A stretch of 64,000 nt of DNA, taken from an uncultured Clostridia bacterium. GTDB lineage: Bacteria; Bacillota; Clostridia; Christensenellales; UBA1242. Position 1 is the first letter of the stretch. Each line of letters begins with the position of its first letter. The translations under genes were made by a program, and so were the position numbers. The DNA lies in assembly GCA_937896905.1 (NCBI GenBank), contig CALBOE010000006.1:57336-121335 (forward strand). Reading direction: 5' to 3'. The notes under the pieces are model-generated. The model did no database searches, had not been told where the DNA came from, and saw only the letters and a program-made list of their open reading frames with translations. Positions 2,679 to 60,432 of this stretch are shown in pieces.

Positions 2679-4634
2679 ATGGAATTTAGAAATTTTGAAT
2701 TAGTAAGTAAATATAAACCCACTGGCGACCAGCCCGAAGCCATAAATTCTTTGGTGGAAGGCATTAAAGATGGCTTAACTTCGCAAGTTTTAAAAGGGGT
2801 TACAGGAAGCGGAAAAACTTTCACAATGGCAAACATAATTGCCCAAGTTAACCGCCCTACTCTTGTGCTTGCGCACAATAAAACGCTTGCCGCTCAACTC
2901 TGCAACGAGTTTAGAGAATTTTTCCCTAACAACAGAGTTGAATTTTTTGTTTCGTATTACGATTACTATCAACCCGAAGCATACATAGTTTCTAGCGACA
3001 CATATATTGAAAAAGACATGAGCGTTAATGACGAAATAGATAAACTTCGCCACAGCGCCACAAGTAGTTTGTTAGAGAGAAGCGACACCATTGTCGTTGC
3101 GTCTGTTTCTTGCATATACGGTTTGGGTGGGCCAGAAGAATATTATAATTTGCACATTTCCTTGCGTGCTGGCGATAAACTTACCCGTGAAGAACTTATA
3201 AGCAAACTTGTTGCAATTCAATATCAGCGCAATGAAATAGATTTTGCCCGTTCCACATTCCGTGCAAGGGGTGATGTTGTAGACATATTCCCGGCAGATA
3301 GCAGCGAACGTGCTATAAGAGTTGAGTTTTTTGACGATACAATTGAACAAATTAGCGAATTTGAAGTTGTTACTGGAAAAGTTTTAAACAGATTACAACA
3401 CGCAGCCATATTCCCTGCCACACACTATGCGGTGGGAAGTGAAAAACTGCAACAAGCTTTAAAACAAATTAAAATTGATGCACAAGAACGGGAAGAATAT
3501 TTTAACGCACAAGGCAAATATATAGAAGCGCAACGCATTAGAGAACGCACCAACTACGACCTTGAAATGATGCAAGAAATGGGCTATTGCTCTGGCATTG
3601 AAAACTACTCCCGCTATTTTGACGGAAGAAGCCCTGGAATGCCACCCTACACCCTTTTAGACTATTTCCCAAATGGTTTCCTTTTGTTTGTGGACGAAAG
3701 CCACATAACAATACCGCAAGTGCGTGGAATGTATAATGGAGATAGAGCCAGAAAAACAAACCTTGTAGATTACGGGTTCCGTCTTCCTAGCGCTTTTGAT
3801 AATCGCCCACTAGATTTTGAAGAATTTAACCGACGACTAACTCAAACAATTTACGTTTCAGCAACACCTAATGATTATGAACTTAACCTTTCGGGCAACA
3901 CTGTTGAGCAAGTTATTCGCCCAACCTATTTGTTGGACCCTGAAATTGAAGTTCGCCCAAGCAGTGGCCAAGTTGACGATTTATATGACGAAATTAACAA
4001 ACAAACGGCCAAAAAAGGCAAAGTTTTAGTTACAACTTTAACCAAGAAAATGGCAGAAGATTTATGTGCATATCTAGGTGAAAATGGTGTTAGAGTTAAA
4101 TACTTGCACAGCGATATAGATACTTTGGAAAGGGTTAAAATTTTAAACGAACTTCGTGCCGACGAATTTGATGTGCTTGTTGGTATTAACCTGTTGCGTG
4201 AAGGATTAGACCTGCCAGAAGTTACACTTGTTGCCATATTAGATGCCGATAAAGAAGGTTTCTTGCGTTCTGCAACCTCCTTAATTCAAACAATCGGGCG
4301 TGCCGCACGTAACAGTGAAAGTAAAGTTATTATGTATGCCGACAACATAACAGATAGTATGAAAAAGGCAATAGACGAAACTAACCGCAGAAGAGAAATT
4401 CAACAAGCCTATAACACTGCCCATAACGTTAAACCTGTTACAGTTAAAAAAGCAATTGTGGATACGCTTAAAATTAGAATGGATAAAAAAGAAGAAAAAA
4501 TGAGCAAGGCAGATATTATTAAAAACATTGAACAAATGAAAGGTATGATGCAAACTGCAGCAAATCAGCTAGATTTTGAAACCGCCATTAAACTCCGTGA
4601 AGAAATTGCCAAACTTAAACGAAAACTGCGATAA
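2679..4634 (+). CDS. uvrB: Excinuclease ABC subunit B
   Basis: 651 aa with Walker A GVTGSGKT, helicase motifs, and the C-terminal UVR coiled coil ([17 protein letters not shown]). Confidence 0.97.
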
Positions 4635-16038: not shown

Positions 16039-16242
16039 TTAGTCGTCTAAATCGTCAAACAATTCAGATTGACAGCCACATTTTATTAAATATGGCTGGA
16101 CGAACTGAATTGACAATTTTAAAATTAGTCATCCAAATCGTCGAACAATTCAGATTGACAGCCACATTTTGTTAAATATGGCTGGACGAACTGAATTGAC
16201 AATTTTAAAATTAGTCATCCAAATCGTCGAACAATTCAGATT
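16039..16242 (-). repeat. 86-bp tandem repeat (2.4 copies) duplicating the rpoB 3' end plus a 54-nt hairpin spacer
   Basis: Copy 1 is 16039-16124, copy 2 is 16125-16210, and the partial copy 16211-16242 is the real rpoB terminus. Copies 1 and 2 differ at 4 of 86 positions. Each unit contains caattcag/ctgaattg and cagccatat/atgtggctg helices. Confidence 0.9.
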
Positions 16243-19200
16243 CGTCGAAAGCGGTGCTATTAACATCGTTTTCGTAACTATTTTGAATGTCGTCAAATTC
16301 AAGTGTAACGTCTTCAAGTGCTTGTTTGTTAACTGGTTCAACAACAGAAATTTCTTCACCTTCTTCGCTAACTTCATTAATTGTTAATTCGTGGTTATCT
16401 GCCGTTAAAATCTTAACATCTAAGCACAAACCTTGCATTTCTTTAACCAAAACTTTAAACGATTCTGGCATGCCTGGTTCTGGAATTGGTTCGCCTTTAA
16501 CAATAGCTTCGTAGGTTTTAATTCTGCCTTCAACGTCGTCCGATTTAATAGTTAACATTTCTTGCAATAATCTAGATGCACCATAAGCTTCTAATGCCCA
16601 CACTTCCATTTCACCAAATCTTTGTCCACCAAGTTGGCTACGTCCGCCAAGAGGTTGTTGAGTGATTAATGCGTAGGTTCCAATGCCACGAGCGTGGATT
16701 TTATCGTCAACCATGTGGTCTAGTTTTAACATATACATAACACCAACTGTGGTTTTATTTTCGAATGGCAAGCCAGTTCTTCCATCGTATAATTGCATTT
16801 TACCGTCTTCTGGCAAGTTGTTTTCTTTAAGCAATGCTTTAATGTCTTCTTCTGTTGCGCCATCGAATGCTGGAGTTGCAACTTTCCAATCTAGGTGTTT
16901 TGCCGCCCAACCCAAGTGAACTTCCAACAATTGGCTTAGGTTCATACGAGAAGGAATACCCAATGGGTTTAAGCAAATGTCAACAGTTTCACCGTTTGGC
17001 ATGTATGGCATATCACATTCTGGAAGCACAACCGAAATAACACCTTTGTTACCGTAACGTCCAGCAAGTTTATCTCCCACTTGAAGCACACGTTTTTGTG
17101 CAATATACACTTTAACACACATATTAACGCCTGCATCTAGTTCGTCTTTATTCTTTCTAGAAAGAATTTCAACATTAACAACAACACCTTCTTCGCCGTG
17201 TTTAACTTTTAAACTTGTGTTTTTAACTTCTTTGGTTTTTTCACCAAAAATTGCTTTTAACAATCTTTCTTCTGGGGTTAGGTCGGTTTCGCCTTTTGGA
17301 GTTACCTTACCAACAAGGATATCTCCAACTTTAACTTCTGTTCCAATTCGAATAATTCCGTTTTCGTCTAAGTTCTTTAATGCTTCTTCGCCAACGCCAG
17401 CAATATCTCTTGTTATTTCTTCGTCGCCAAGTTTAGTTGTTCTTGCTTCTATTTTAACTTGTTGAATTGCAATTGATGTGAACACATCGTCTTGCACTAT
17501 TCTTTTGTTAATTAAAATAGCGTCTTCAAAGTTGTAACCTTCCCAGTTCATAAATGCAACTGTTAAGTTCTTGCCAAGTGCAACTTCGCCCTTATCTGTA
17601 GAGCCACCATCTGCAAGCACATCGCCTTTTTTAACCTTTTCGCCTTTCTTTACAATTGGTTTTTGGTTAAAGCTTGCTTTTTCGTTCGTTCTTTCAAACT
17701 TTCTTAATTTGTGGTTAACAATGCTTCCGTCGGCATATTCCATTGTGATATAGTCGGCCGACACATATTTACAAACACCATCTTGGCTTGCAAGCACCAT
17801 GGCGCCTGAATCCACCGCAATTTTGTGTTCTATTCCAGTTCCAACAATTGGACTTTCTGCTCTTATTAATGGAACGGCTTGAGATTGCATGTTTGCACCC
17901 ATCAATGCACGGTTACCTGGTGAGTGTTCAATGAAAGGAATTAAGTTTGTTCCTGGTGCAAGAAGTTGAGTTGGGGTTAATTCCACCAATGTTACCATGC
18001 TTGCATCCACACGAACTGGTTGTCCGTTATGACGGCACTCTAACAAACCTTCTTTAATGGTTTTGTCGTCGTTTAAATCCACAGTTGCTTGCGCAATGTA
18101 GTGCCCACGTTCTTCGTCTGCCATTAAGTAAACAACTTCGTCGGTAACTTTTCCGTTTGCGTCAACTTTTCTAAATGGAGTTTCAATAAATCCATACCTA
18201 TTAATACGTGCGTAAGCAGCAATAGAAGTCATCAAACCAATAGGTTGTCCTTCTGGGGTTTCTGCCAAACAAATTCTGCCATAGTGAGATGGGTTAATAT
18301 CACGCACTTCAACAGTTGCACGTTCTTTTTTAACACCGCCTGGGCCAAAAGATGATAACCTACGTTTATGCCTTAAGCTAGATGCTGGGTTAATTTGGTC
18401 CATAAGCGCACTTAATTGGCTGGTTGCCATAAATTCTTTAAACACCTTGTTAATGTGCCTTGCATTAACAATTTGGCTTGGTGTTATATCGGTTAAATCT
18501 CTGCTTTGAAGAGATTCACGAACTTGTGCTTGAAGTTTTGTCATACCTCTACGGAATTCGTCACGTAAAAGTTCGCCACAAGTTGCAACTCTTCTCATAG
18601 ACAAGTGGTCAATTTCATCAGTTTCGCCAATGCCGTCTATTAAATTTAGGTGATAGCTTACTGTTGCAAGCATATCGTCTAAAGTAACTTGGTAATCTTC
18701 AAGTTTTCTAGCATTTGTGCTTATTGCTGCCTTTAAAGCTTCTTCGTTGCCTTTGTTTTCTTTCATAATTTCTTGCAACAATGGAAGATAAACAAGTTCT
18801 GTTATGCCAAATTCGGCTGGGTTAAGTTTTGCGTATGCTTTAAGGTCTACCCTGGCATTACCAACAACTCTAATAACTTTGTCGTCCACAATAATATCTA
18901 CTGCGTTAACACCAGCATTTTGAATTGCCCATGCGGTTTGTTTATCTATAAATTCGCCCTTAGAAACATAAACCTTTTTGCCAACTTTTACGTCAGCTGC
19001 AGCAATTTGGTCGGTAATTCTGTTTGCAAGCGACAATTTTTTGTTAAGTTTAAAACGGCCAACTTTTTCCATGTTGTAGTGTTGTTGGTTAAAGAAACGG
19101 TCGTTAATATATGCCAATGTGTTTTCTGGGTTAGGAATTTCACCCGGACGAGTTCTACGGCCAAATTCAATTAAAGCATCTTCTTGGGTGATTTGTGCTT

Positions 19201-19882
19201 CCTTATCCAATGTGTTAACAATGAATGGGTGATTTGCAAAAATATCCAACAATTCTTCGTTGGTGTAGCCAAAGCATTTGAAAAGAACACCCAAACTCAT
19301 TTTGAATTTGCGTTCAACAATAACACGCATGCTGTCGCCTGTTACTTGTTCTGTTTGAACCCACATTCCATAGCTTGGTTGGATTGCACCAGTGTAGTCC
19401 ATGCGGCCATACTTGTTAAGTTCGCCACCAAAAATTGCGCCTGGTGCTTTAATTAGTTGATTCAAAACAACCCTTTCAACACCATTGCAAATAAAGCCAC
19501 CGTCTTGGCTCATATATGGAATGTCGCCCATGAATACTTCTTGGTCCATAATTTGCCCGGTTTCTTTAACAAGCAAACGAACTTTCACTTTAAGCGGAAC
19601 TGTGTAGCTTGTTTGTTTGGTTTTGCATTCTGCCCAAGAATATTTTGGGGTTCTGTCGATAGAATAACCCAAAAAAGACAACTCTGCTTTGTTAGAGTAG
19701 TCTATAATAGGGTTATATTCGTTCAAAATTTCGCCAATATCCTCGGTTAAAAACTTTTCGTAGGACTTTTTTGGAACTTCCAAAAGGTCTGGCATTGGAT
19801 AGTTGCCGCCCTTTTTGGCAAAACTATATCTTTCTGCTTTGCCTTGTTTTAGTTTTTTAATGTTGAGCTCATTTGAATTCAT
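16211..19882 (-). CDS. rpoB: DNA-directed RNA polymerase subunit beta
   Basis: 1223 aa with conserved beta-subunit blocks ([37 protein letters not shown]). Confidence 0.98.
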   Translation of the reverse strand: [1223 protein letters not shown]

Positions 19883-39200: not shown

Positions 39201-39535
39201 AAATATTTCTTTATTGTTTTTGCACTAAAGCCATCTATTGTGTCTATGCTGGCAGTTTTAACTTGGTCTATTAAACTTAGAATATATGCCTTGTTTTGGG
39301 CCGTTTTCAACTCTTCATTAAGTTTTGCCACCAACCTATCTTTCATTTCTGTGCCAGCAAGAACTGTAAACGTAACCACCAAAAGTGAAGATATTGCAAC
39401 GTTCTCTTTAATTATTAGATTTGCAATTTTTTCAATCATAACAGTGGTTTTTCCACTGCCAGCACCAGCACTGACAAGTTGGTGGGAAGCGGTTGAATCT
39501 AAAATGTCTTGTTGTACTTTTTCAAACTTCTTCAT
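36266..39535 (-). CDS. addA: ATP-dependent helicase/nuclease subunit A
   Basis: 1089 aa. UvrD-type Walker A GAGSGKT. C-terminal RecB-type nuclease motif (GVVDLIIEKDNYIDIVDYK). Confidence 0.93.
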   Translation of the reverse strand: MKKFEKVQQDILDSTASHQLVSAGAGSGKTTVMIEKIANLIIKENVAISSLLVVTFTVLAGTEMKDRLVAKLNEELKTAQNKAYILSLIDQVKTASIDTIDGFSAKTIKKYFYELGISPNIEIISDTTRDYYISIAMKKTLDEYGKSADKINVLLDLFGGNARNFNKLQEMILNTYFNIVNLEKYEEFLEQSVQEYVNGFRSQNVVNNYILNEVGRLKEVIIYSGASCSESIKNKLAECVQKLNEFNQNASLEYNLRLLESFECSTFSAKECKENEGLKEINDQLKAFLENKTNLQENGINFNFNEKNAKIIECFNYFIEILKIFIKNYNLIKEKNNLIDFNDLNRLMLKLLENEKVKAELQEKYQYIFIDEYQDVNPLQDKLMSSLVGKNAHLFTVGDVKQSIYGFRGSSPEWFIKKYNSYKQNSNLGTAFDMNVNFRSNPKIMEFANEIFSKLMTKQASDIDYAKDCVIDAKRTDIIDDKTEMLLVAADKEDVFAKGIYSVKNDATEKATTAKELEAFLVLKKITELVGTKFYDANLKAERELTYADIAILSRSERDESAKILIDLLRSNGIPLKLNNKLETNKSECIKLVVSILKCVANLADDVDYLACFMALTPLTMDELVSFRNKDKTLFENLKENINNPAIQAGFDALNDIKTKTYTKSNSDLIRYILNEKQLRYYLLTHENGAKEIALLEEFLKKLTVESGLSLAEFIAVVESNVSRGADFAEADLENSVTIQTIHKSKGLEYPVVIMFNSSKMFQHLRETDEVNFNADIGLGVDYFNSADRTKENSVPQFAIKLKNIEKGAKEELRLLYVAITRAKNKLIITGQYNPKILEERVIKNTSFANLILSCYLDRLNFGENDFKYCKICLLDGAEKVSLIQPEESENFEWVNKDFVYANAEKFSIPFKNTVTGLNSKQAESVKFDTKEWLTHKNQYNAEEDRALVGTHYHSALEQLNLSAAFVKCTDFVDVDYDKIQKAHEALSLLAKGATAIKKEAEFMLYVPYNEIVNSNISDKVLVQGVVDLIIEKDNYIDIVDYKFSSLPAKILKQKYMEQLKLYKLAVEKAFKKPVEHMYIYSINTGELV

Positions 39536-42500
39536 TCTTCCTCTCCTTTAAAACTTTCTAAATTAACCTTATTTTCTTGCCTTAATTTAATGTTGTTGCA
39601 CGACTTTAAACAAATATGTGAATACGGGCAAAAGTTGCATGGTTCACTTACGCTCGATGGCGTTGGCTTAATGAAGCCGGATTTAATTTCATCAACTGCC
39701 AAAGCAGAAACGGCTTTAGAATATTCTTTTAAGTTGTGCATTTCTTTAAACTGCAGTTCTTTATATCCCTTTGTTTTTCTTGCTAACTTCGCGTTAGTTA
39801 GCGTAACATTAACAATATCGCTTTTATTTGTTGACGTTCCAAGCCGTGTGTCGAACGCTTGCAAAACTTTTTCATCTTGAACAAAGAACCCTTTTAGTGA
39901 ATATGGATTTTTGGGTTCTCTTCTATACTCATTATGCAGTGGCAAGTAAAACTGACCAGCAACATAGTTGTTACTAACATTTTCCATTGCGCAAGAATAT
40001 AAAAATAATTGCAACTTGTTTCCGTAATATAATTCCTTTAAACTTGCATCTGCCTTGCCGGATTTGTAATCCACAACACGCAAATAATCTTCAAATTTAT
40101 CCACCCTATCCACTTTGCCAACAAGATTAACGTTCCCCAAGTTTAAAGCAGTTTTGCCTTTAAATTCAAATTCAAACAAATGCGGTTTGAACGAAGAATT
40201 TTCGTCGATGTAATTTAGCCCATTAATCACCCTCACCGCCTCATCAATCAAAGCTATTAAAATTGGACTATTGACGTTTATCCTTAACCTATCGTTAGCA
40301 TCTACAAAGTTAAAAATCTGTGTGCGGCAAAAATCGTATATATCGCCAACCTGTTTTTTGCGTTTGTAATATTCAAACAAAATTTCATGCAAAATGTTAC
40401 CAACGTCTAACGACTGAATTTCTCCACTCAACCTTGGTTTAACTTTTAAAATGTTAGAAGCAAAATAATAGAATGGGCATTTAAAATAACTTTCTAGCTG
40501 AGAGGCAGAAATTGTTTTCATATTTTCATAAATAATTAAATTGTCTTTAGAAATATTAGAAAAATCTTTTTTAATTAAAATATTGTTTAAAATTTCATTT
40601 TTATTTAAATTATTTAATGAAAAATTGCAAATTTTTGCTATATTTTGATTATTTTTTAAATTTTTACAAGCATTTTCAATAAAATCATTTTTGCTTAACA
40701 ATTTATACTCACCCAAATTAAACGCATTAATTGGAACTAAATTAACTTTTTTCCCAGCAATTTCAACTTGAATTTTATTAATAAATTCTCTTATTAATTC
40801 GCTTGGAATTTTGCTGTAAGTTACAGTTAAAGAATCATTAAACATTAACGCCGTGTTAAACAATCTTAGTTTGCTTAAACTGTTTATATGTGCAATTGTT
40901 GGCGAAAGCTTATTTTTAAAGTTAAGTTCTGGAATTTCTGTGTCTAAAATAATTCCGCAATCGAATTTTAAACTTGGTGCAACATCTGCATTGCAACCAA
41001 CCAGATACAACCTACTAAAAATTTCACTAAAACTATCCGCGTCCACCACTTTAACTGCGTCTAAAGTTAGTGGCAAATTATTAATACTAACAACGCTAGA
41101 AATATGCGAATAAATGTCATAAATCTCTGCAAGACCAGCAAAAGGATAAAATTTTTCAATTTCGTCTAGCAAACTGAATACTGCTTCTTTACTTTTACTT
41201 AAAAGTAACCGCTCGGCTATGTGCACGTGTTGCGATAAGTTCTCTAAAACTTCGTCAAACTTAATTTGCTGATTTGCAGATATTAGCATTTGCTTTATAT
41301 TGGTGGCAGAAATGTCTTTATCCATAATGAACAAATCAACAAAATCTAATAGTTGTTGTTTTGCCTCTTCTAGTTCAGAGCCCAAATTAAAATCCCTTGA
41401 AATTTTGCCTTTAAAGTTCATTAAGGTGAATTTTTCTATAAGTTTGGTTTTTAACTCGTTTTCCATTGCAAAAAATGGAGAGTTAATAATGTCCACCAAA
41501 TGCACAAGATTATAGTTTTCTAAATTAAATTTAAACACAGTTAGCAAAAATTTATAAAAAATACTGTTTGAAAGTGAAAAAGGCACGTCAAAATATGCAT
41601 TTATTTCGTATTTGTTAAAAATTTCTTTAATTTTTTCTATTTTGTTTTCCAACCCGTAAACTGCAACGCCATAATTGGAATAATTTTTTCCTTGCAAAAT
41701 TCCCGCCCGAATTTCCCTTGCAACAAACTCCAATTCGTCAGCATCATCTTTGGCTGAATATATTTTTATTGTTTCTTTATTTAAGCAGAATGTTGAATTC
41801 TCTATTCCAAATAGATTAGTTTGCAAAAATGTTTTTAATTCGCTGTTGGTAGGATTTGCATATTCGACCTTAAACTCCAATTCGTTTACATACGCAATGT
41901 TTTTAAGTTGTTCATAAATTTCGGCATTAAAAATGTGCTTGTTTGCCCCATTACCCCAACAAGTTAAAATGTTAACATTGTTGTTGAATGCAAGTCGTTC
42001 AATAATTGCATATTCGATTGCTGTAAAATCGTCAAACCCAACAAATAAAATAGTTTTGTTAAAATGCACTTTTTCAACAGTTAGCGCAGACATTAAAAAT
42101 AAATCGAAACTATCTAAAAGCCCCGCCTTTCCATTTTCATACTCCTCGAAAATTAGTGCCAAATCTGCAATTTTATCGTTTAACTGTTGATTGACACTTT
42201 TAAATGTGCTCATTTCTTGCCATGTTATTTTGCTAGCTTTAAGTTGCGCTATAGTTTTATAAATGTTTTCGGCATAACTAAAAGAATAAGCCTTGCTTTT
42301 TAACGCCTTTAAATTGTTAATGTTTTCGGTTAAAATTTTATGAATTAGCACAATGCTTCCAACTTTGGAAATTTGACTATCCTTTCCAATCTGATTGCTT
42401 CTTTTTGCAAATCTGTTTAAAGTGCTTACTTTAATGTTAAAACTGCACTCTAACTGCATTTGTTCAAACAAAAATTTTTCCATAAACAAACTAAGTTTGT

Positions 42501-42603
42501 CTGGAACAACAATTTCAATCTTTTCTTTTTCGTGCTTTTGGCAAAACTCAACCGCTTGCATTAACCCTGCATTAAAAGAGGGAACATTAATTAATTTTAT
42601 CAT
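39532..42603 (-). CDS. addB: ATP-dependent helicase/nuclease subunit B
   Basis: 1023 aa. C-terminal nuclease motif (GKVDRVD...VVDYKSGK) flanked by Fe-S Cys residues (CPFYYF ... CNFCPYSHIC). 4-nt overlap with addA. Confidence 0.9.
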   Translation of the reverse strand: MIKLINVPSFNAGLMQAVEFCQKHEKEKIEIVVPDKLSLFMEKFLFEQMQLECSFNIKVSTLNRFAKRSNQIGKDSQISKVGSIVLIHKILTENINNLKALKSKAYSFSYAENIYKTIAQLKASKITWQEMSTFKSVNQQLNDKIADLALIFEEYENGKAGLLDSFDLFLMSALTVEKVHFNKTILFVGFDDFTAIEYAIIERLAFNNNVNILTCWGNGANKHIFNAEIYEQLKNIAYVNELEFKVEYANPTNSELKTFLQTNLFGIENSTFCLNKETIKIYSAKDDADELEFVAREIRAGILQGKNYSNYGVAVYGLENKIEKIKEIFNKYEINAYFDVPFSLSNSIFYKFLLTVFKFNLENYNLVHLVDIINSPFFAMENELKTKLIEKFTLMNFKGKISRDFNLGSELEEAKQQLLDFVDLFIMDKDISATNIKQMLISANQQIKFDEVLENLSQHVHIAERLLLSKSKEAVFSLLDEIEKFYPFAGLAEIYDIYSHISSVVSINNLPLTLDAVKVVDADSFSEIFSRLYLVGCNADVAPSLKFDCGIILDTEIPELNFKNKLSPTIAHINSLSKLRLFNTALMFNDSLTVTYSKIPSELIREFINKIQVEIAGKKVNLVPINAFNLGEYKLLSKNDFIENACKNLKNNQNIAKICNFSLNNLNKNEILNNILIKKDFSNISKDNLIIYENMKTISASQLESYFKCPFYYFASNILKVKPRLSGEIQSLDVGNILHEILFEYYKRKKQVGDIYDFCRTQIFNFVDANDRLRINVNSPILIALIDEAVRVINGLNYIDENSSFKPHLFEFEFKGKTALNLGNVNLVGKVDRVDKFEDYLRVVDYKSGKADASLKELYYGNKLQLFLYSCAMENVSNNYVAGQFYLPLHNEYRREPKNPYSLKGFFVQDEKVLQAFDTRLGTSTNKSDIVNVTLTNAKLARKTKGYKELQFKEMHNLKEYSKAVSALAVDEIKSGFIKPTPSSVSEPCNFCPYSHICLKSCNNIKLRQENKVNLESFKGEEE

Positions 42604-54434: not shown

Positions 54435-56843
54435 TTAAACAACAATATTAAATATGCGCCCAGGAATATAAACCATCTTCTTATAGCCGTTTTCTACCCA
54501 AGTGGCAACTTCTTTAAGTGCAGTTTGTTTAATTTCCTCTTCTGGTGCGGTTTTGCTAACTGTAATTTTTCCACGCAATTTACCATTAACTTGAATTGGA
54601 ATTTCTATTGTTGAAATTTCTAGTTTGGTTTTGTCGTATGTTGGCCAACTTTCGAATGCCACTGTTTTATTATGGCCTAAACCTTGCCACAATTCTTCGG
54701 TTAAGCATGGGCAAATTGGATTAAGCAGTTTAACAAACCCTTCGGCGTATTCACGTGGGAAAGATTTTACTTTAGAAACAGCATTAATAAATATCATCAT
54801 TTGAGAAATTGCCGTGTTAAAGTTTAAGCTTTCATAATCTTCACTAACTTTTTTAACGGTTTGGTTATAAACAAAATCCAATTCGCCATCGTTTTCGTTT
54901 GTGATTGGCTTTTCTTGATATAACCTAAACACTCTATCAAGGAATTTTCTTGCACCGTTAACACCATTTTCGTCCCACGGTTTAGACGCTTGAAGTGGCC
55001 CCATAAACATTTCGTATAGGCGCAAGGTGTCTGCCCCATATTTTTTAACAATAACGTTAGGATCTACAACATATTCTGGGAAACGCTTGCCCATTTTAAT
55101 GCCATTTGCACCCAAAATCATTCCCGGGTGAACAAGTTTTTTGAAAGGTTCTTTAACCGGAACAACACCCTTATCAAACAAATAGTTATTCCACATTCTT
55201 GAATATAACAAATGCCCAACTGCGTGTTCTGGCCCACCAACATAAAGGTCAACCGGAAGCCAATGTTTTAAAAGTTCTTTATTTGCAATCTCGTTATTGT
55301 TCTTAGGGTCGATATATCTTAAATAATACCAACTAGAACCAGCGCTTCCTGGCATTGTGCTTGTTTCTCTTTTGGCTGGCTTGCCATTAACAACAACATT
55401 AACCCAATCTTCTGCTTTTGCAAGTGGACTACTTCCGTCCTTTGCTGGCTTATAATCATCTAAAACAGGAAGAACAAGAGGAAGTTCGCTGTCGCTCAGT
55501 GCTGCAGTTGTGCCATCTTCAAAATGAACAACCGGAATTGGCTCGCCCCAATAACGCTGACGGGCAAATATCCATTCTCTAATTCTAAAATTAGATTTTA
55601 CCCTTCCAACTCCCATTTTAACAACTTTGTCGGTTATTGCTTTTTTTGCTTGCTCAACAGTTAGCCCATTAAATTCTTCACTGTTAATAAGAGTGCAACT
55701 CTTTCCTAAATAATCCTGCTTTTCAAATGCGTGATTACTCACATCTGCACCAGCAATAACCTGAATCATTGGAATGTTGTGAGCAATTGCATATTCAAAA
55801 TCTCGCTGGTCGTGGCTTGGAACTGCCATAACTGCACCAGTGCCATAACTTGCCAAAACAAAGTCGCCAATAAACAATGGAACTTTTTTGCCGTTAACCG
55901 GGTTAATTGCATAAACTCCATCTAGTTTAACACCAGTTTTGCCTTTGTTTAGTTCTGTTCTTTCCAAGTCGCTTAACTTGGCGGTTTCTGCCCTGTACTG
56001 CGCAACTTCTTTCCAGTTTTTTATTCTTGGTTTAAGTTCGTCCACCAACTTACTTTCTGGCGCAACAACCATAAAGGTTATGCCATAAATTGTTTCAATG
56101 CATGTGGTGAAAATAGAAAACTTTCCGCCACCAACCAAATCAAAGTCCACTTCCACGCCGTTAGATTTGCCAATCCAATTTTTTTGCATAAGTTTGGTAG
56201 ATTCTGGCCAATCAATTTCATTTAAACCTTCTAACAATCTGCCGGCATACTTTGGAATATCAATAACCCATTGTTTCATATTCTTTTTAACAACAGGAAA
56301 TCCTCCTCGTTCACTTTTGCCATCAACAATTTCGTCATTTGCAAGCACGCATCCCAATTCTTCACACCAATTAACAGGCATTTCAACACAGCGTGCTAAC
56401 CCGTCTTGATATAGTTGTTTAAAAATCCATTGAGTCCATTTGTAAAAATCGGGCGCACTGGTTTGAATATTCCTGTCCCAATCGTAAGAAAATCCAATGT
56501 TTTTTAATTGATTGGTGAAATATGCAATGTTCTTTTGAGTGAAACTATCAGGGTGATTACCTGTTTCAATAGCAAACTGTTCTGCTGGCAAACCAAAAGA
56601 ATCGAATCCCATTGGGTGCAAAACGTTATACCCTTGCATGCGCTTCATTCTGCTAACAATGTCTGTTGCCGTGTAGCCCTCTGGGTGGCCAACGTGAAGC
56701 CCTGCGCCAGATGGATACGGAAACATATCTAACGCATAGAACTTTGGCTTGGAAAAATCCCAAATATCTGTTTTAAAAGTTTCATTTTCTTCCCAATATT
56801 TTTTCCATTTTGCTTCAATTTCAATGTGATTATATTCTTTCAT
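54435..56843 (-). CDS. leuS: Leucyl-tRNA synthetase
   Basis: 802 aa. HIGH-type motif (HVGHPEGYT), a KMSKS-like KMGKR, and a CP1 editing domain. Confidence 0.98.
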   Translation of the reverse strand: MKEYNHIEIEAKWKKYWEENETFKTDIWDFSKPKFYALDMFPYPSGAGLHVGHPEGYTATDIVSRMKRMQGYNVLHPMGFDSFGLPAEQFAIETGNHPDSFTQKNIAYFTNQLKNIGFSYDWDRNIQTSAPDFYKWTQWIFKQLYQDGLARCVEMPVNWCEELGCVLANDEIVDGKSERGGFPVVKKNMKQWVIDIPKYAGRLLEGLNEIDWPESTKLMQKNWIGKSNGVEVDFDLVGGGKFSIFTTCIETIYGITFMVVAPESKLVDELKPRIKNWKEVAQYRAETAKLSDLERTELNKGKTGVKLDGVYAINPVNGKKVPLFIGDFVLASYGTGAVMAVPSHDQRDFEYAIAHNIPMIQVIAGADVSNHAFEKQDYLGKSCTLINSEEFNGLTVEQAKKAITDKVVKMGVGRVKSNFRIREWIFARQRYWGEPIPVVHFEDGTTAALSDSELPLVLPVLDDYKPAKDGSSPLAKAEDWVNVVVNGKPAKRETSTMPGSAGSSWYYLRYIDPKNNNEIANKELLKHWLPVDLYVGGPEHAVGHLLYSRMWNNYLFDKGVVPVKEPFKKLVHPGMILGANGIKMGKRFPEYVVDPNVIVKKYGADTLRLYEMFMGPLQASKPWDENGVNGARKFLDRVFRLYQEKPITNENDGELDFVYNQTVKKVSEDYESLNFNTAISQMMIFINAVSKVKSFPREYAEGFVKLLNPICPCLTEELWQGLGHNKTVAFESWPTYDKTKLEISTIEIPIQVNGKLRGKITVSKTAPEEEIKQTALKEVATWVENGYKKMVYIPGRIFNIVV

Positions 56844-56865
56844 AAAATCTCCTTAAATGGTTATT

Positions 56866-56893
56866 AAAAAAATGACAGCCACCCATGCCGTCA
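56866..56893 (-). terminator. Intrinsic terminator in the leuS leader (attenuator)
   Basis: Minus strand: tgacggc-atgggtg-gctgtca followed by T7. It lies 22 nt upstream of the leuS start codon at 56843. Confidence 0.75.
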
Positions 56894-56941
56894 ATTTTAA
56901 CTTTCGGCACAAGCAAAATAAGTGCCAATGCTAGGCACCAT

Positions 56942-56977
56942 TTACCATAAGAGCAATGCCAAAGTTTTAATTATCAT
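56942..56977 (-). CDS. Candidate leaderless leader peptide MIIKTLALLLW (4 Leu in 11 codons)
   Basis: The ATG sits exactly 6 nt after the -10 box. Codons are TTG GCA TTG CTC TTA, and the stop lies 4 nt before the first attenuator helix. Confidence 0.35.
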   Translation of the reverse strand: MIIKTLALLLW

Positions 56978-56983
56978 GTTATT

Positions 56984-57012
56984 ATATTATCACATTGAAC
57001 TGCCGTTGTCAA
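56984..57012 (-). promoter_or_regulatory. leuS leader promoter
   Basis: TTGACA (57012-57007), 17-nt spacer, TAATAT (56989-56984). Confidence 0.75.
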
Positions 57013-57027
57013 GAAAAGATGCAATGT

Positions 57028-57378
57028 TTACCTTGGAACAAAACTATTGCATGGAGCATTAGATTGCTCGCTTCCAACAAAAATACCATTAGAAAAACAT
57101 TCGCCCTCCTTGTTAAAAACACAATTAGAAGTATCACACATTATATTCATGGTTTTACAATGATGAAAAGGTGCAATGTCTGGTTCGTGCATAAACATAT
57201 CCCTAGAAACGTCCTGAACTTCTTTGGTTGTATCTATTCTTAAATCGTTACAATCGGCACAATTATCAATTTGCAGGTTTTTTCTGCTGCATTTTGCCCT
57301 GTCGTTATATTGGCAACTATATTTTCTACACATTACGTCCATAAATCTATTTTTGCCAACATATAACGTTTTATTCAT
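57028..57378 (-). CDS. Cys-rich protein with two DUF1540-like modules
   Basis: The pattern C..S.C.(Y/F)N....C is repeated (VMCRKYSCQYNDRAKC; IMCDTSNCVFNKEGEC). Confidence 0.7.
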   Translation of the reverse strand: MNKTLYVGKNRFMDVMCRKYSCQYNDRAKCSRKNLQIDNCADCNDLRIDTTKEVQDVSRDMFMHEPDIAPFHHCKTMNIMCDTSNCVFNKEGECFSNGIFVGSEQSNAPCNSFVPR

Positions 57379-58803: not shown

Positions 58804-60168
58804 TTAATCATTTACCTTTTTGTTAACATATTCAACAAGTTCGTCTATGCTTAGGCGGATTTGCTCCATTGTGTCGCGGTCACGAACTGTAACTGTGTTA
58901 TTTTCTAACGTGTCGAAATCGATTGTAACACACATTGGCGTTCCAATTTCGTCCTGACGGCGGTAACGTTTTCCAATTGAGCCCGCTTCGTCGTAGCTAA
59001 CCATAAAGTGCTTTGCAAGTTTTGTGTAAACTTCGTTTGCTTTTTCGCTTAAATTCTTTTGAAGCGGAAGAACAGCAACCTTATATGGCGCAATGCTTGG
59101 GTGGAAGTGCATAACAACACGAGTATCTCCACCTGCTAAAACCTCTTCGTCATACGCTTCGCATAAAACTGCCAAAGTTAAACGGTCGGCACCAATGGAA
59201 TATTCTATAACATTTGGAATATATTTTTCGTTGGTGAAAGGGTCTAAATATAACATAGATTTACCGCTGTATTCTTGATGACGACTTAAATCCCAATCTC
59301 CCCTGTGGTGAATGCCATTTAATTCTTCCCAACCAATTGGATAGTGATATTGAATGTCGCAAGCGGCTTTTGCATAGTGCGCAAGTTTGTCGTGATCGTG
59401 GAAACGTAAATTTTCTGCCTTAAAGCCTAAAGAAAGCAAGAAATTGAATGCTTTTTCTTTAAACTGAGCATAGAAATTCATGCTATCGTCCGCCTTGCAG
59501 AACCATTGGTGTTCCATTTGTTCAAATTCAATTGTTCTAAAAATAAAGTTTCCTGGTGTAACTTCATTTCTAAACGCTTTACCAATTTGAGCAATTCCAA
59601 ATGGCACCTTTGCACGCATACTACGTTGAACGTTAAGGAAGTTAACAAATTCCCCTTGCGCAGTTTCTGGGCGCAAATAAATTAAATTTTGACTATCTTC
59701 TGTTACGCCACGAGAAGTTGAAAACATAAGGTTAAAGTTACGAATTGATGTCCAATCGTGCTTACCACATTTTGGGCAGTTAACTTTGTGTTCTGCAATG
59801 TATTGTTCCATTTGTTCGTTGCTCATTGTGTCGGCATTAACTGTTCCTTTGCTATGCGCTTCAATTAAATTATCTGCTCTGTGGCGAGTTTTGCAAGATT
59901 TGCAGTCCATTTTAGGGTCGGAAAAACTTGCAGTGTGGCCACTTGCGTCCCACACTTTGCTATTCATAAAAATGTCGGCATCAACACCATACGAGTTTGG
60001 CGATAACTGCACAAACTGTTTCCACCAAGCGCGCTTAATGTTGTTTTTAAGTTCCACACCAACAGGACCATAATCCCAAGTGTTGGCAAGGCCATCGTAA
60101 ATGTCGCTTCCTGGGAAAATTAATCCCCTACTTTTGCATAAGTTCACAATTTTATCAAAGTTTTGCAT
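58804..60168 (-). CDS. glyQS: Glycyl-tRNA synthetase (class II, homodimeric GlyQS type)
   Basis: 454 aa with class II motifs (FRNEVTPGNFIFRTIEFEQME; GADRL). Confidence 0.97.
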   Translation of the reverse strand: MQNFDKIVNLCKSRGLIFPGSDIYDGLANTWDYGPVGVELKNNIKRAWWKQFVQLSPNSYGVDADIFMNSKVWDASGHTASFSDPKMDCKSCKTRHRADNLIEAHSKGTVNADTMSNEQMEQYIAEHKVNCPKCGKHDWTSIRNFNLMFSTSRGVTEDSQNLIYLRPETAQGEFVNFLNVQRSMRAKVPFGIAQIGKAFRNEVTPGNFIFRTIEFEQMEHQWFCKADDSMNFYAQFKEKAFNFLLSLGFKAENLRFHDHDKLAHYAKAACDIQYHYPIGWEELNGIHHRGDWDLSRHQEYSGKSMLYLDPFTNEKYIPNVIEYSIGADRLTLAVLCEAYDEEVLAGGDTRVVMHFHPSIAPYKVAVLPLQKNLSEKANEVYTKLAKHFMVSYDEAGSIGKRYRRQDEIGTPMCVTIDFDTLENNTVTVRDRDTMEQIRLSIDELVEYVNKKVND

Positions 60169-60195: not shown

Positions 60196-60365
60196 CTATG
60201 CCATAAGAAAAACCCTTACAGCATTATTTTGCCGTAAGGGACGATTTTTACAAACCGCGGTTCCACCCTAATTGGATAATTCCCACCTTATTTTCTTGTT
60301 ACGCCAAGCGGAGCGGATATCTTTTCAATATCTCCAGATAAATCGCCACTTTATCTATAGGATTA
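60196..60365 (-). promoter_or_regulatory. T-box riboswitch (Gly, GGC specifier) controlling glyQS
   Basis: The reverse complement of 60256-60273 reads AATTAGGGTGGAACCGCG, the T-box consensus. Terminator cccttacgg...ctgtaaggg plus T5 (60208-60240). GGC lies on the 3' side of stem I (60305-60303). TTGACA-17-TAATAT promoter at 60399-60371. Confidence 0.85.
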
Positions 60366-60432
60366 TTTTTATATTATTCCATTTTTATTAGTTTGTCAAC
60401 CATTTTTCTAGATTTTAGCATTTTGTTAAAAC

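Follow-up and report, generated by a model that had tools for sequence, protein, structure and literature searches.

We analysed the leader of leuS in a 64,000-nucleotide (nt) stretch of DNA, hereafter the window, which comes from an uncultured Clostridia bacterium. The gene lies on the minus strand and its product, leucine--tRNA ligase (LeuRS), was assigned with TIGR00396 (974 bits vs a cutoff of 548); an exact-protein look-up of this LeuRS retrieved no record. T-box riboswitches are regarded as the standard control of aminoacyl-tRNA synthetase (aaRS) genes in Bacillota. For leuS, a first-pass annotation made from the sequence had instead pointed to a Leu-rich mini open reading frame (ORF), a chain of mutually exclusive helices and an intrinsic terminator, read together as a leader-peptide attenuator. 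Every sequence feature in its list was found on the minus strand, at the positions it had given (Table 1).

The promoter had been described as TTGACA-17-TAATAT placed exactly 6 nt before an ATG, and this arrangement was confirmed both in the sequence and by an independent pattern scanner, which agreed on the promoter (10/12 matches, TG-extended) as well as on the terminator. The -10 hexamer TAATAT (56989-56984) is preceded by a TGa that closes the 17-nt spacer, and the 6 nt AATAAC separate it from the ATG at 56977. The ORF opened by this ATG, MIIKTLALLLW-stop at 56977-56942 (minus strand), is also as described and reads ATG ATA ATT AAA ACT TTG GCA TTG CTC TTA TGG TAA, with four Leu codons among its 11 (TTG at 56960-56962, TTG at 56954-56956, CTC at 56951-56953 and TTA at 56948-56950). 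Beyond the stop codon come hairpin P2 with its U-rich stretch and then element B, which contains GCUUGUGCCG (56914-56905) downstream of the U-rich stretch. On the same strand, GTGCC(G) occupies 56910-56905 and CGGCA 56890-56886; the terminator hairpin spans 56893-56873 and its U7 56872-56866. In minimum free energy (MFE) folds, element A is paired with the strand at 56900-56910, that is ACUUUGGCAU with GUGCCGAAAGU. The GUGCC that forms the 3' part of element B has alternative partners, either the GGCAC of P2 (helix 2:3 of the first-pass annotation) or element A. The upstream neighbour, at 57028-57378 on the minus strand, is the gene of a Cys-rich DUF1540 protein, and no terminator separates this gene from the leuS promoter.

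Table 1. Features of the leuS leader in the window, in the order of transcription. SD, Shine-Dalgarno sequence; MFE, minimum free energy.
Feature	Position	Strand	Basis or remark
-35 hexamer TTGACA	57007..57012	-	Pattern scanner; TTGACA or TTGACT in 22/22 leaders
Extended -10, TGa TAATAT, 17 nt past the -35	56984..56992	-	TAnnnT in 22/22 leaders
Leader ORF MIIKTLALLLW-stop	56942..56977	-	ATG 6 nt past the -10, at the inferred transcription start
Element A (ACUUUGGCAU), within the ORF; 5' strand of the outer anti-antiterminator helix	56956..56965	-	MFE structures
Hairpin P2 (1:2 of the first-pass annotation), GGUGCC-UAGCAUU-GGCACU, then a U-rich stretch	56921..56939	-	Pattern scanner: terminator-like
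Element B (UUGCUUGUGCCG), antiterminator 5' strand	56905..56916	-	Most conserved alignment block
Element C (CGGCAUGGGUGG), antiterminator 3' strand; overlaps terminator 5' arm and loop	56879..56890	-	12-bp contiguous pairing in the window
Intrinsic terminator, stem TGACGGC/GCTGTCA, 7-nt loop ATGGGTG, then U7	56866..56893	-	Pattern scanner
leuS SD, AAGGAG	56849..56854	-	Sequence
leuS, leucine--tRNA ligase, 802 aa, regulated gene; ATG at 56843	54435..56843	-	TIGR00396

Relatives of this leader were collected by a LeuRS-based scan of species-representative genomes, which gave 80 loci with 67-84% LeuRS identity, most of them from gut metagenome-assembled genomes (MAGs) labelled Clostridia, Christensenella or Candidatus Onthoplasma (order Christensenellales). 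The same leader type was found at 18 of the 80 loci and, by a DNA pattern, on three metagenome contigs, always directly upstream of leuS. The pattern used on the metagenomes, GGCACAN{3,4}TTTGGTTGTGCT, gave 45 matches, of which three were real (L081, L101 and L107), all before leuS; the remaining 42 were chance matches within unrelated sequence, and the scan yielded no evidence of the motif upstream of genes other than leuS. A regular-expression match at L029 was also discarded as a false positive. The comparative set therefore comprises 22 leaders, the window and 21 relatives, with 21 unique ORFs. A covariance model (R1) built on these 22 leaders and run over the window and 83 loci (0.69 Mb) retrieved only its training sequences, the next best hit having E = 0.15.

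The comparison of orthologous leaders came out in favour of the mini-ORF: all 22 keep an ATG at the promoter-defined +1, a short ORF, a run of Leu codons and a stop codon before the hairpin. The promoter is recognisable in 22/22 leaders (TTGACA or TTGACT, a spacer of 17-18 nt, TAnnnT, then the ATG). Twenty leaders have exactly 6 nt between the -10 and the ATG, and of the remaining two, one has 7 nt and the other 8 nt; the six bases that fill this gap are different in nearly every leader. The ORF takes the form M-x(4-5)-L-A-L-L-L-x(0-2)-stop and always comprises 9-12 codons; all three stop codons occur, at varying positions, and the stop sits just before the hairpin throughout. The codon that follows the invariant GCA specifies Leu in 21/21 unique ORFs, as TTG, TTA, CTA, CTT or CTG, and the next two codons behave likewise, with Y at position 1 and an unchanging T at position 2, whereas position 3 varies. 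From ATG to GCA, 16 of the unique ORFs measure 18 nt and the other five 21 nt, which corresponds to a one-codon in-frame indel. Within the unconserved N-terminal codons, which are 63% A, no stop was found among the 89 triplets of frame 0, against 12 in each of the +1 and +2 frames; calculated from composition with the 18 unique variants taken as independent, the probability of no frame-0 stop is about 1e-4, a value which is less extreme given the relatedness of the leaders. Leu accounts for 37% of leader codons vs 9.2% in the long ORFs of the window, and CTC, present in the window's leader ORF, makes up 0.6% of Leu codons in those long ORFs. Taken together, these observations show that the mini-ORF has coding-type conservation. 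A functional small peptide was considered as its product and rejected, the N-terminal half being unconserved.

The helices were examined in the same 22 leaders. The MAFFT alignment of the set (A1) misaligns P2 and the divergent terminators, and those helices were accordingly analysed sequence by sequence. On the unbiased alignment, the sole consensus helix returned by RNAalifold was the antiterminator B:C, in which the conserved block GGUUGUGCUG is matched to the 5' arm and loop of the terminator (C consensus CAGCAYRACC). In this helix 96.8% of the alignment cells are paired; a shift of the partner by 1-3 columns lowers the figure to 27-58%. Double changes were seen in two pairs, from U-A to C-G in three sequences and from G-C to A-U in one (L045), and with the indel placed correctly the window has a G-C to C-G change at the second B:C pair. 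The number of compensatory cells, four, was reached in 0/500 shuffles. Complementarity between B and C is contiguous over 7-13 bp in 22/22 leaders, and a terminator hairpin with its U-run is likewise present in 22/22. The terminator stems are of several unrelated types (GACAGC/GCUGUC, GCAACC/GGUUGC, GAGCAC/GUGCUC, CAGCAC/GUGCUG and AGCGC/GCGCU), and the register of the C box shifts among leaders from "arm plus loop" to "arm". Since B:C persists over unrelated stems and register shifts, the conservation of the C box is explained by pairing with B and not by the terminator.

Hairpin P2 was found in 21/22 leaders. Its inner pairs co-vary (G-C, A-U or U-A, and A-U or C-G at the next position), whereas its outer GGCAC arm is invariant, as expected for a strand with a second partner, the GUGCY in B. 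An outer helix, A:B', joins UUGGCAY within the ORF to GUGCYRAA; one of its pairs occurs as G-C, G-U or A-U and never as A-C (GGCA/UGCC, GGCA/UGCU, AGCA/UGCU). Neither the P2 loop nor the terminator loop is conserved, and a tRNA-anticodon-like reading of the former was rejected on that ground. Of the helix chain proposed in the first-pass annotation, 1:2, 2:3 and the 4:5 terminator with its U7 are all present, but 3:4 turned out to be a helix of 10-12 bp and not of 5 bp, and the outer A:B pairing has to be added. The expectation that the helices co-vary was also borne out, since they either co-vary or persist despite changed terminator sequences.

The same helices could in principle be toggled without translation by a factor acting in trans, such as LeuRS, uncharged tRNA or a small molecule, the mini-ORF being incidental. 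ThrRS of E. coli, which binds its own leader, would be the model for autoregulation by LeuRS. We consider such a switch improbable, although the helices are real and conserved, as it would have them, and the conservation of the Leu codons could partly reflect pairing in the long hairpin. The mutually exclusive helices already explain every conserved block, and the unconserved P2 and terminator loops leave no candidate pocket for a ligand or a protein. Four further features of the leaders would stay unexplained, namely the invariant ATG exactly at the promoter-defined +1, the indel in a multiple of 3 nt, the stop depletion specific to frame 0 and the stop codon always just before P2. Solutions by protein or tRNA mimicry may nevertheless exist in the clade, a tRNA-like T-arm and ACCA being found in the different leuS leader of one relative, L077. 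In this leader, at about 1090-1200 and shortly upstream of leuS (1245), a tRNA-like top half GCUCCU...ACAGG-UUCGAUU-CCUGU-AGGGAGC-ACCA, made of a T-arm, an acceptor-like stem and A73-CCA, is preceded by a long hairpin with UUCAAU in its loop. The element may represent a tRNA gene in decay, or it may mimic tRNA-Leu.

In two other relatives, L022 and L023, the sequence about 200 nt ahead of leuS (position 3001) belongs to yet another leader, common to both and the third type at this gene. It combines a long-range helix, AAAGUUUA/UAAACUUU, with the string AAGUACCGCU, whose likeness to a T-box is faint. For the leaders of L022, L023, L077 and L080, Rfam gave nothing at E<=0.01 and ARAGORN found no tRNA.

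The effect of a ribosome was modelled by masked folding, in which the transcript from the ATG to the U-tract was folded with its 5' end, through 9 nt past the A-site codon, made unpairable. For the window, naked RNA gave a terminator probability of 0.98, and the terminator was favoured in 20/22 leaders of the family. With the A-site on the first Leu codon after Ala, the antiterminator reached a probability of 0.75 in the window; with the A-site on the last Leu codon the values were 0.44 for the antiterminator and 0.51 for the terminator. Either Leu position taken together, the antiterminator was favoured in 16/22 leaders. With the A-site on the stop codon the terminator came back to 0.98 in the window and was favoured in 17/22 leaders. 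The window structure in this last state contains exactly the GGCAC:GUGCC helix. The three-state logic put forward in the first-pass annotation, in which 2:3 forms when the ribosome is on the stop codon, was hence reproduced for the window, and the three ribosome-dependent states appear thermodynamically plausible in this model, which does not amount to a proof.

From the conservation and the folds, it is very likely that the leader is a ribosome-mediated transcription attenuator of the leader-peptide kind, which would tune leuS to the supply of charged tRNA-Leu. Transcription would begin at the A of the ATG at 56977, a 70S ribosome would load on the 5' AUG, and the 11-codon MIIKTLALLLW ORF would be translated as a leaderless message. 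Five RNA elements would interact, A, P2, B (the UUGUGCY block), C and D (the 3' arm of the terminator, followed by U7). Without a ribosome, A would pair with B around P2, the C:D terminator would form and transcription would stop. When Leu-tRNA-Leu is plentiful, the ribosome would reach the stop codon and cover the 5' arm of P2; the freed GGCAC of P2 would then pair with the GUGCC in B, the terminator would form and transcription would stop as well. When Leu-tRNA-Leu is scarce, a ribosome stalled on the Leu codons would mask A while P2 remains folded, and B, left free, would pair with C into an antiterminator of 10-12 bp, which would let the polymerase proceed into leuS. Hairpin P2 and its U-rich tail are a probable pause site for RNA polymerase, which would synchronise ribosome and polymerase. 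Because LeuRS itself makes Leu-tRNA-Leu, the loop would be homeostatic and would have the same function as a T-box.

The terminator has a second possible role. Transcripts that arrive from the DUF1540 gene should terminate, because the AUG would then be internal and without a Shine-Dalgarno sequence, and the attenuator terminator may also insulate leuS from read-through. As an alternative to attenuation, the leader could be nothing else than an insulator, or a terminator of constitutive, partial effect, placed after the DUF1540 gene and ahead of leuS; amino acids would not be sensed, and the AT-rich mini-ORF would be there by chance. Such an explanation would fit the strong preference of naked RNA for the terminator, the same-strand DUF1540 gene without a terminator ahead of the leuS promoter and the absence of the element from several close relatives. 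It is nonetheless very unlikely. A dedicated consensus promoter lies between the DUF1540 gene and the terminator, a conserved and co-varying antiterminator would be pointless, and the ORF, its Leu run and the position of its ATG are conserved in 22/22 leaders.

Several observations weigh against the attenuator. In the equilibrium folds, the full three-state pattern was obtained in only 10/22 leaders; the antiterminator was never favoured in some leaders (L044, L081, L010, L004 and L002) and was favoured even with the ribosome at the stop codon in others (L036, L045 and L019). Masked folding deals with equilibrium and full-length RNA, and it under-rates an antiterminator which, in vivo, forms before the 3' arm of the terminator exists. 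On the coding side, no more than two Leu codons are present in the leaders L027 (MNKANILALPVC) and L081 (MKKNIFKALL). The Leu codons lie within the 5' strand of a long conserved hairpin, where selection at the RNA level also contributes, and a column-shuffle test of Leu-specific codon choice was weak (about p = 0.1, an estimate) and non-significant alone; the codon-shuffle argument is too weak by itself because codon position 2 stays a T in either case. The leaders are related, so that the counts given here are not independent. Lastly, close relatives (L001, L003, L057 and others) do without any attenuator. With these points taken into account, leader-peptide attenuation, the interpretation of the first-pass annotation, is supported by the comparative evidence, those of its proposed tests that could be run in silico being all in its favour.

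The absence of the element from close relatives was documented at five loci, L001, L003, L016, L030 and L057 (80-84% LeuRS identity), which have kept the DUF1540 gene and a consensus promoter. In such attenuator-less close relatives the 5' untranslated region of leuS measures about 30 nt. On a neighbour-joining tree of LeuRS, the genomes with the attenuator fall into three clusters, with lineages devoid of it in between. The leuS attenuator is thus dispensable and patchily distributed. Since the three clusters are split by attenuator-less lineages and close relatives lack it, this distribution suggests an old element which would have been repeatedly lost.

Neither a T-box nor another catalogued RNA was detected in the leader. 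The Rfam scan of 56600-57300, on both strands and at E<=10, gave no T-box, Leu_leader or leu/phe-leader match but noise only, RF00230, RF00512 and RF01743 being all missing from the leuS leader region even at this threshold. The same library detected T-boxes upstream of leuS in the outgroups L062, L064, L067 and L076 (103-135 bits). At gathering thresholds, Rfam gave three tRNAs only over the whole window, the T-box of glyQS being below threshold. The conserved T-box sequence AGGGUGGNACCGCG, expected in a bulged antiterminator, was not found in the leader, whose antiterminator is a continuous helix, and no Stem I with a single-codon specifier loop was seen either. GGGUGG, which the first-pass annotation had noted, occurs only in the terminator loop. 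It is moreover confined to the window, the 21 relatives having other sequences there (AUGACCG, AUAACCG or CACAACC), and it corresponds to the complement, G-U pairs included, of GCUUGU in the antiterminator.

These results bear on a degenerate or compact T-box, in which the antiterminator would be stabilised by uncharged tRNA-Leu, paired both to a Leu specifier and to GGGUGG. In its favour are the facts that this riboswitch is the norm at aaRS genes of the phylum, that outgroup leuS genes carry it, that the glyQS T-box of the same window has a drastically shortened Stem I and that GGGUGG is there in the window. We regard it as effectively refuted, for RF00230 has no match at E<=10, the GGGUGG found in the window alone is explained as the complement of the antiterminator GCUUGU, the antiterminator is continuous without a conserved UGGN bulge, the synonymous variation of the Leu codons is incompatible with one specifier and the Stem I platform is absent.

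The T-box upstream of glyQS (58804-60168), which lies at 60234-60396 on the minus strand, is real, with a perfect AGGGUGGAACCGCG box and a terminator. It had been called a textbook case, which it is not: it scores 51 bits vs a gathering score of 93 (E = 1.9e-10) and its Stem I is truncated. A normal Stem I would not fit behind the glyQS promoter, TTGACA-17-TAATAT at about 60398-60370, and the 5' element is seemingly AGAUAAA-GUGGCGA-UUUAUCU, a hairpin of 7 bp whose terminal loop contains GGC, a Gly codon. This hairpin would be an "ultrashort Stem I" arrangement, of the kind that occurs in actinobacterial ileS T-boxes.

Leaderless translation of the mini-ORF, which the attenuator reading assumes, was considered against the other promoters of the window. 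Among the strong promoters with an ATG at most 15 nt from the -10, the gap is exactly 6 nt in 6/11. Five of these six ATGs open ORFs of 131-566 aa (21605, 28132, 44553, 45957 and 47157, on the minus strand) and the sixth is that of the leuS mini-ORF; one further long ORF, 39532-42603 with its start at 42603, has the 6-nt geometry with a weaker -35. The recurrence of the "-10 plus 6 nt plus ATG" geometry at bona fide long ORFs therefore stands, but with five cases, or six with the weaker -35, and not with the approximately 11 first counted. These long ORFs have no Shine-Dalgarno sequence, whereas most other genes of the window have AGGAG. The published signature of bacterial leaderless genes (PMC3160421) has this very geometry, its TANNNT beginning about 12 nt before the start codon, and the leuS mini-ORF itself has a TANNNT about 12 nt before its start and no Shine-Dalgarno sequence. 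Leaderless translation is plausible in this genome from these signals. About a tenth of the genes in the window look leaderless, which is seemingly high for a Bacillota genome, the reported mean being 4.2% (range 2.4-16.6%) in the Firmicutes genomes where such genes were detected (PMC3160421). Another short ORF, of 23 codons (MNNVRHRQVGSFILCITCGEQYN and a stop), lies at 19969-19898 on the minus strand, 8 nt past a TTGACA-17-TAAAAT promoter; it precedes an ORF of 1223 aa (16211-19882) which has its own Shine-Dalgarno sequence.

The proposed system resembles several known ones. It would share with the T-box (RF00230) the sensing of tRNA charging, the control of an aaRS gene by antitermination and, in outgroup leuS genes, the very same position. 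Unlike a T-box, its sensor would be the translating ribosome and not direct binding of the tRNA, and the leader has no T-box sequence, Stem I or specifier loop. The enterobacterial attenuators (trp, leu, his, thr, and pheST with pheM) have in common with it the regulatory codons, a helix chain of the 1:2/2:3/3:4 type, an intrinsic terminator and termination when translation does not take place (super-attenuation); pheST, with its pheM leader, already represents the leader-peptide principle at an aaRS gene (PMC1262725). In contrast to the window leader ORF, which starts at the inferred +1, their leader ORFs have a Shine-Dalgarno sequence and a 5' untranslated region. The window leader also differs by two apparent anti-antiterminator pairings, A:B and P2 3' arm:B, and the enterobacterial Leu_leader gave no Rfam match at the leuS leader of the window.

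Closer in taxonomy are the leader peptides of Firmicutes. His leader peptides "replacing T-boxes" have been predicted for hisS paralogues in bacilli (PMC2965389) and others for the his operons of several Firmicutes lineages (PMC9413887), and a leu/phe leader of Lactococcus lactis is in Rfam as RF01743 (PMC2864571). They belong to the same phylum, have runs of cognate codons and terminator/antiterminator hairpins, and follow the same theme of "regular" leader peptides which replace T-boxes. They differ in amino acid or gene, and RF01743 had no match here at E<=10. Leaderless translation of the leader ORF was not found reported for these His or leu/phe leaders, and the literature searched mentioned neither a leader-peptide attenuator at leuS for Bacillota nor any leaderless one for the phylum. 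A statement of 2005 was that no Firmicutes aaRS gene was known with classical attenuation (PMC1262725).

It seems rather likely that the leaders form an undescribed family, in which leaderless Leu attenuators would have replaced the ancestral leuS T-box in one lineage of Christensenellales-like gut Bacillota (Candidatus Onthoplasma and relatives), independently of Streptomyces and with repeated losses. The novelty would lie in the sequence family, its host clade and the apparent replacement of a T-box; the mechanism is known, the nearest analogue is functionally almost identical, and the understanding of attenuation itself is unchanged. If the proposal is true, leuS would be the first Bacillota aaRS gene shown to be under a leaderless leader peptide. 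At leuS, ribosome sensing appears to have taken the place of direct tRNA sensing in this lineage, which still has a truncated T-box at glyQS. The leaders would add evidence for leaderless translation, regulation included, in an uncultured low-GC gut clade, and a new cis-regulatory family absent from Rfam would improve the annotation of gut MAGs.

The nearest analogue is found in Streptomyces, where classical attenuators before leuS and trpS were predicted in 2005 (Seliverstov et al., PMC1262725). In S. lividans, RNA-seq later revealed upstream of leuS a leaderless peptide, LeuL2 (MRAVRLLLSEPR), with a hairpin and a U stretch downstream of its ORF (Droste et al. 2021, PMC8079986). The likeness to the leader described here is extensive, with the same gene, a leader ORF of about 12 codons reported as leaderless, a run of three Leu, a hairpin and U stretch after the ORF and a predicted classical antiterminator/terminator switch. 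The hosts belong to different phyla, high-GC Actinobacteria on the one hand and a low-GC Christensenellales-like member of Bacillota on the other. Peptides and helices also differ; compared with the published peptide, MIIKTLALLLW shares with MRAVRLLLSEPR only the Leu run. Because there is no evident sequence relationship and both peptides and helices differ, the likeness is probably convergent, and the two leuS leaders would then offer a clean natural example of convergent evolution.

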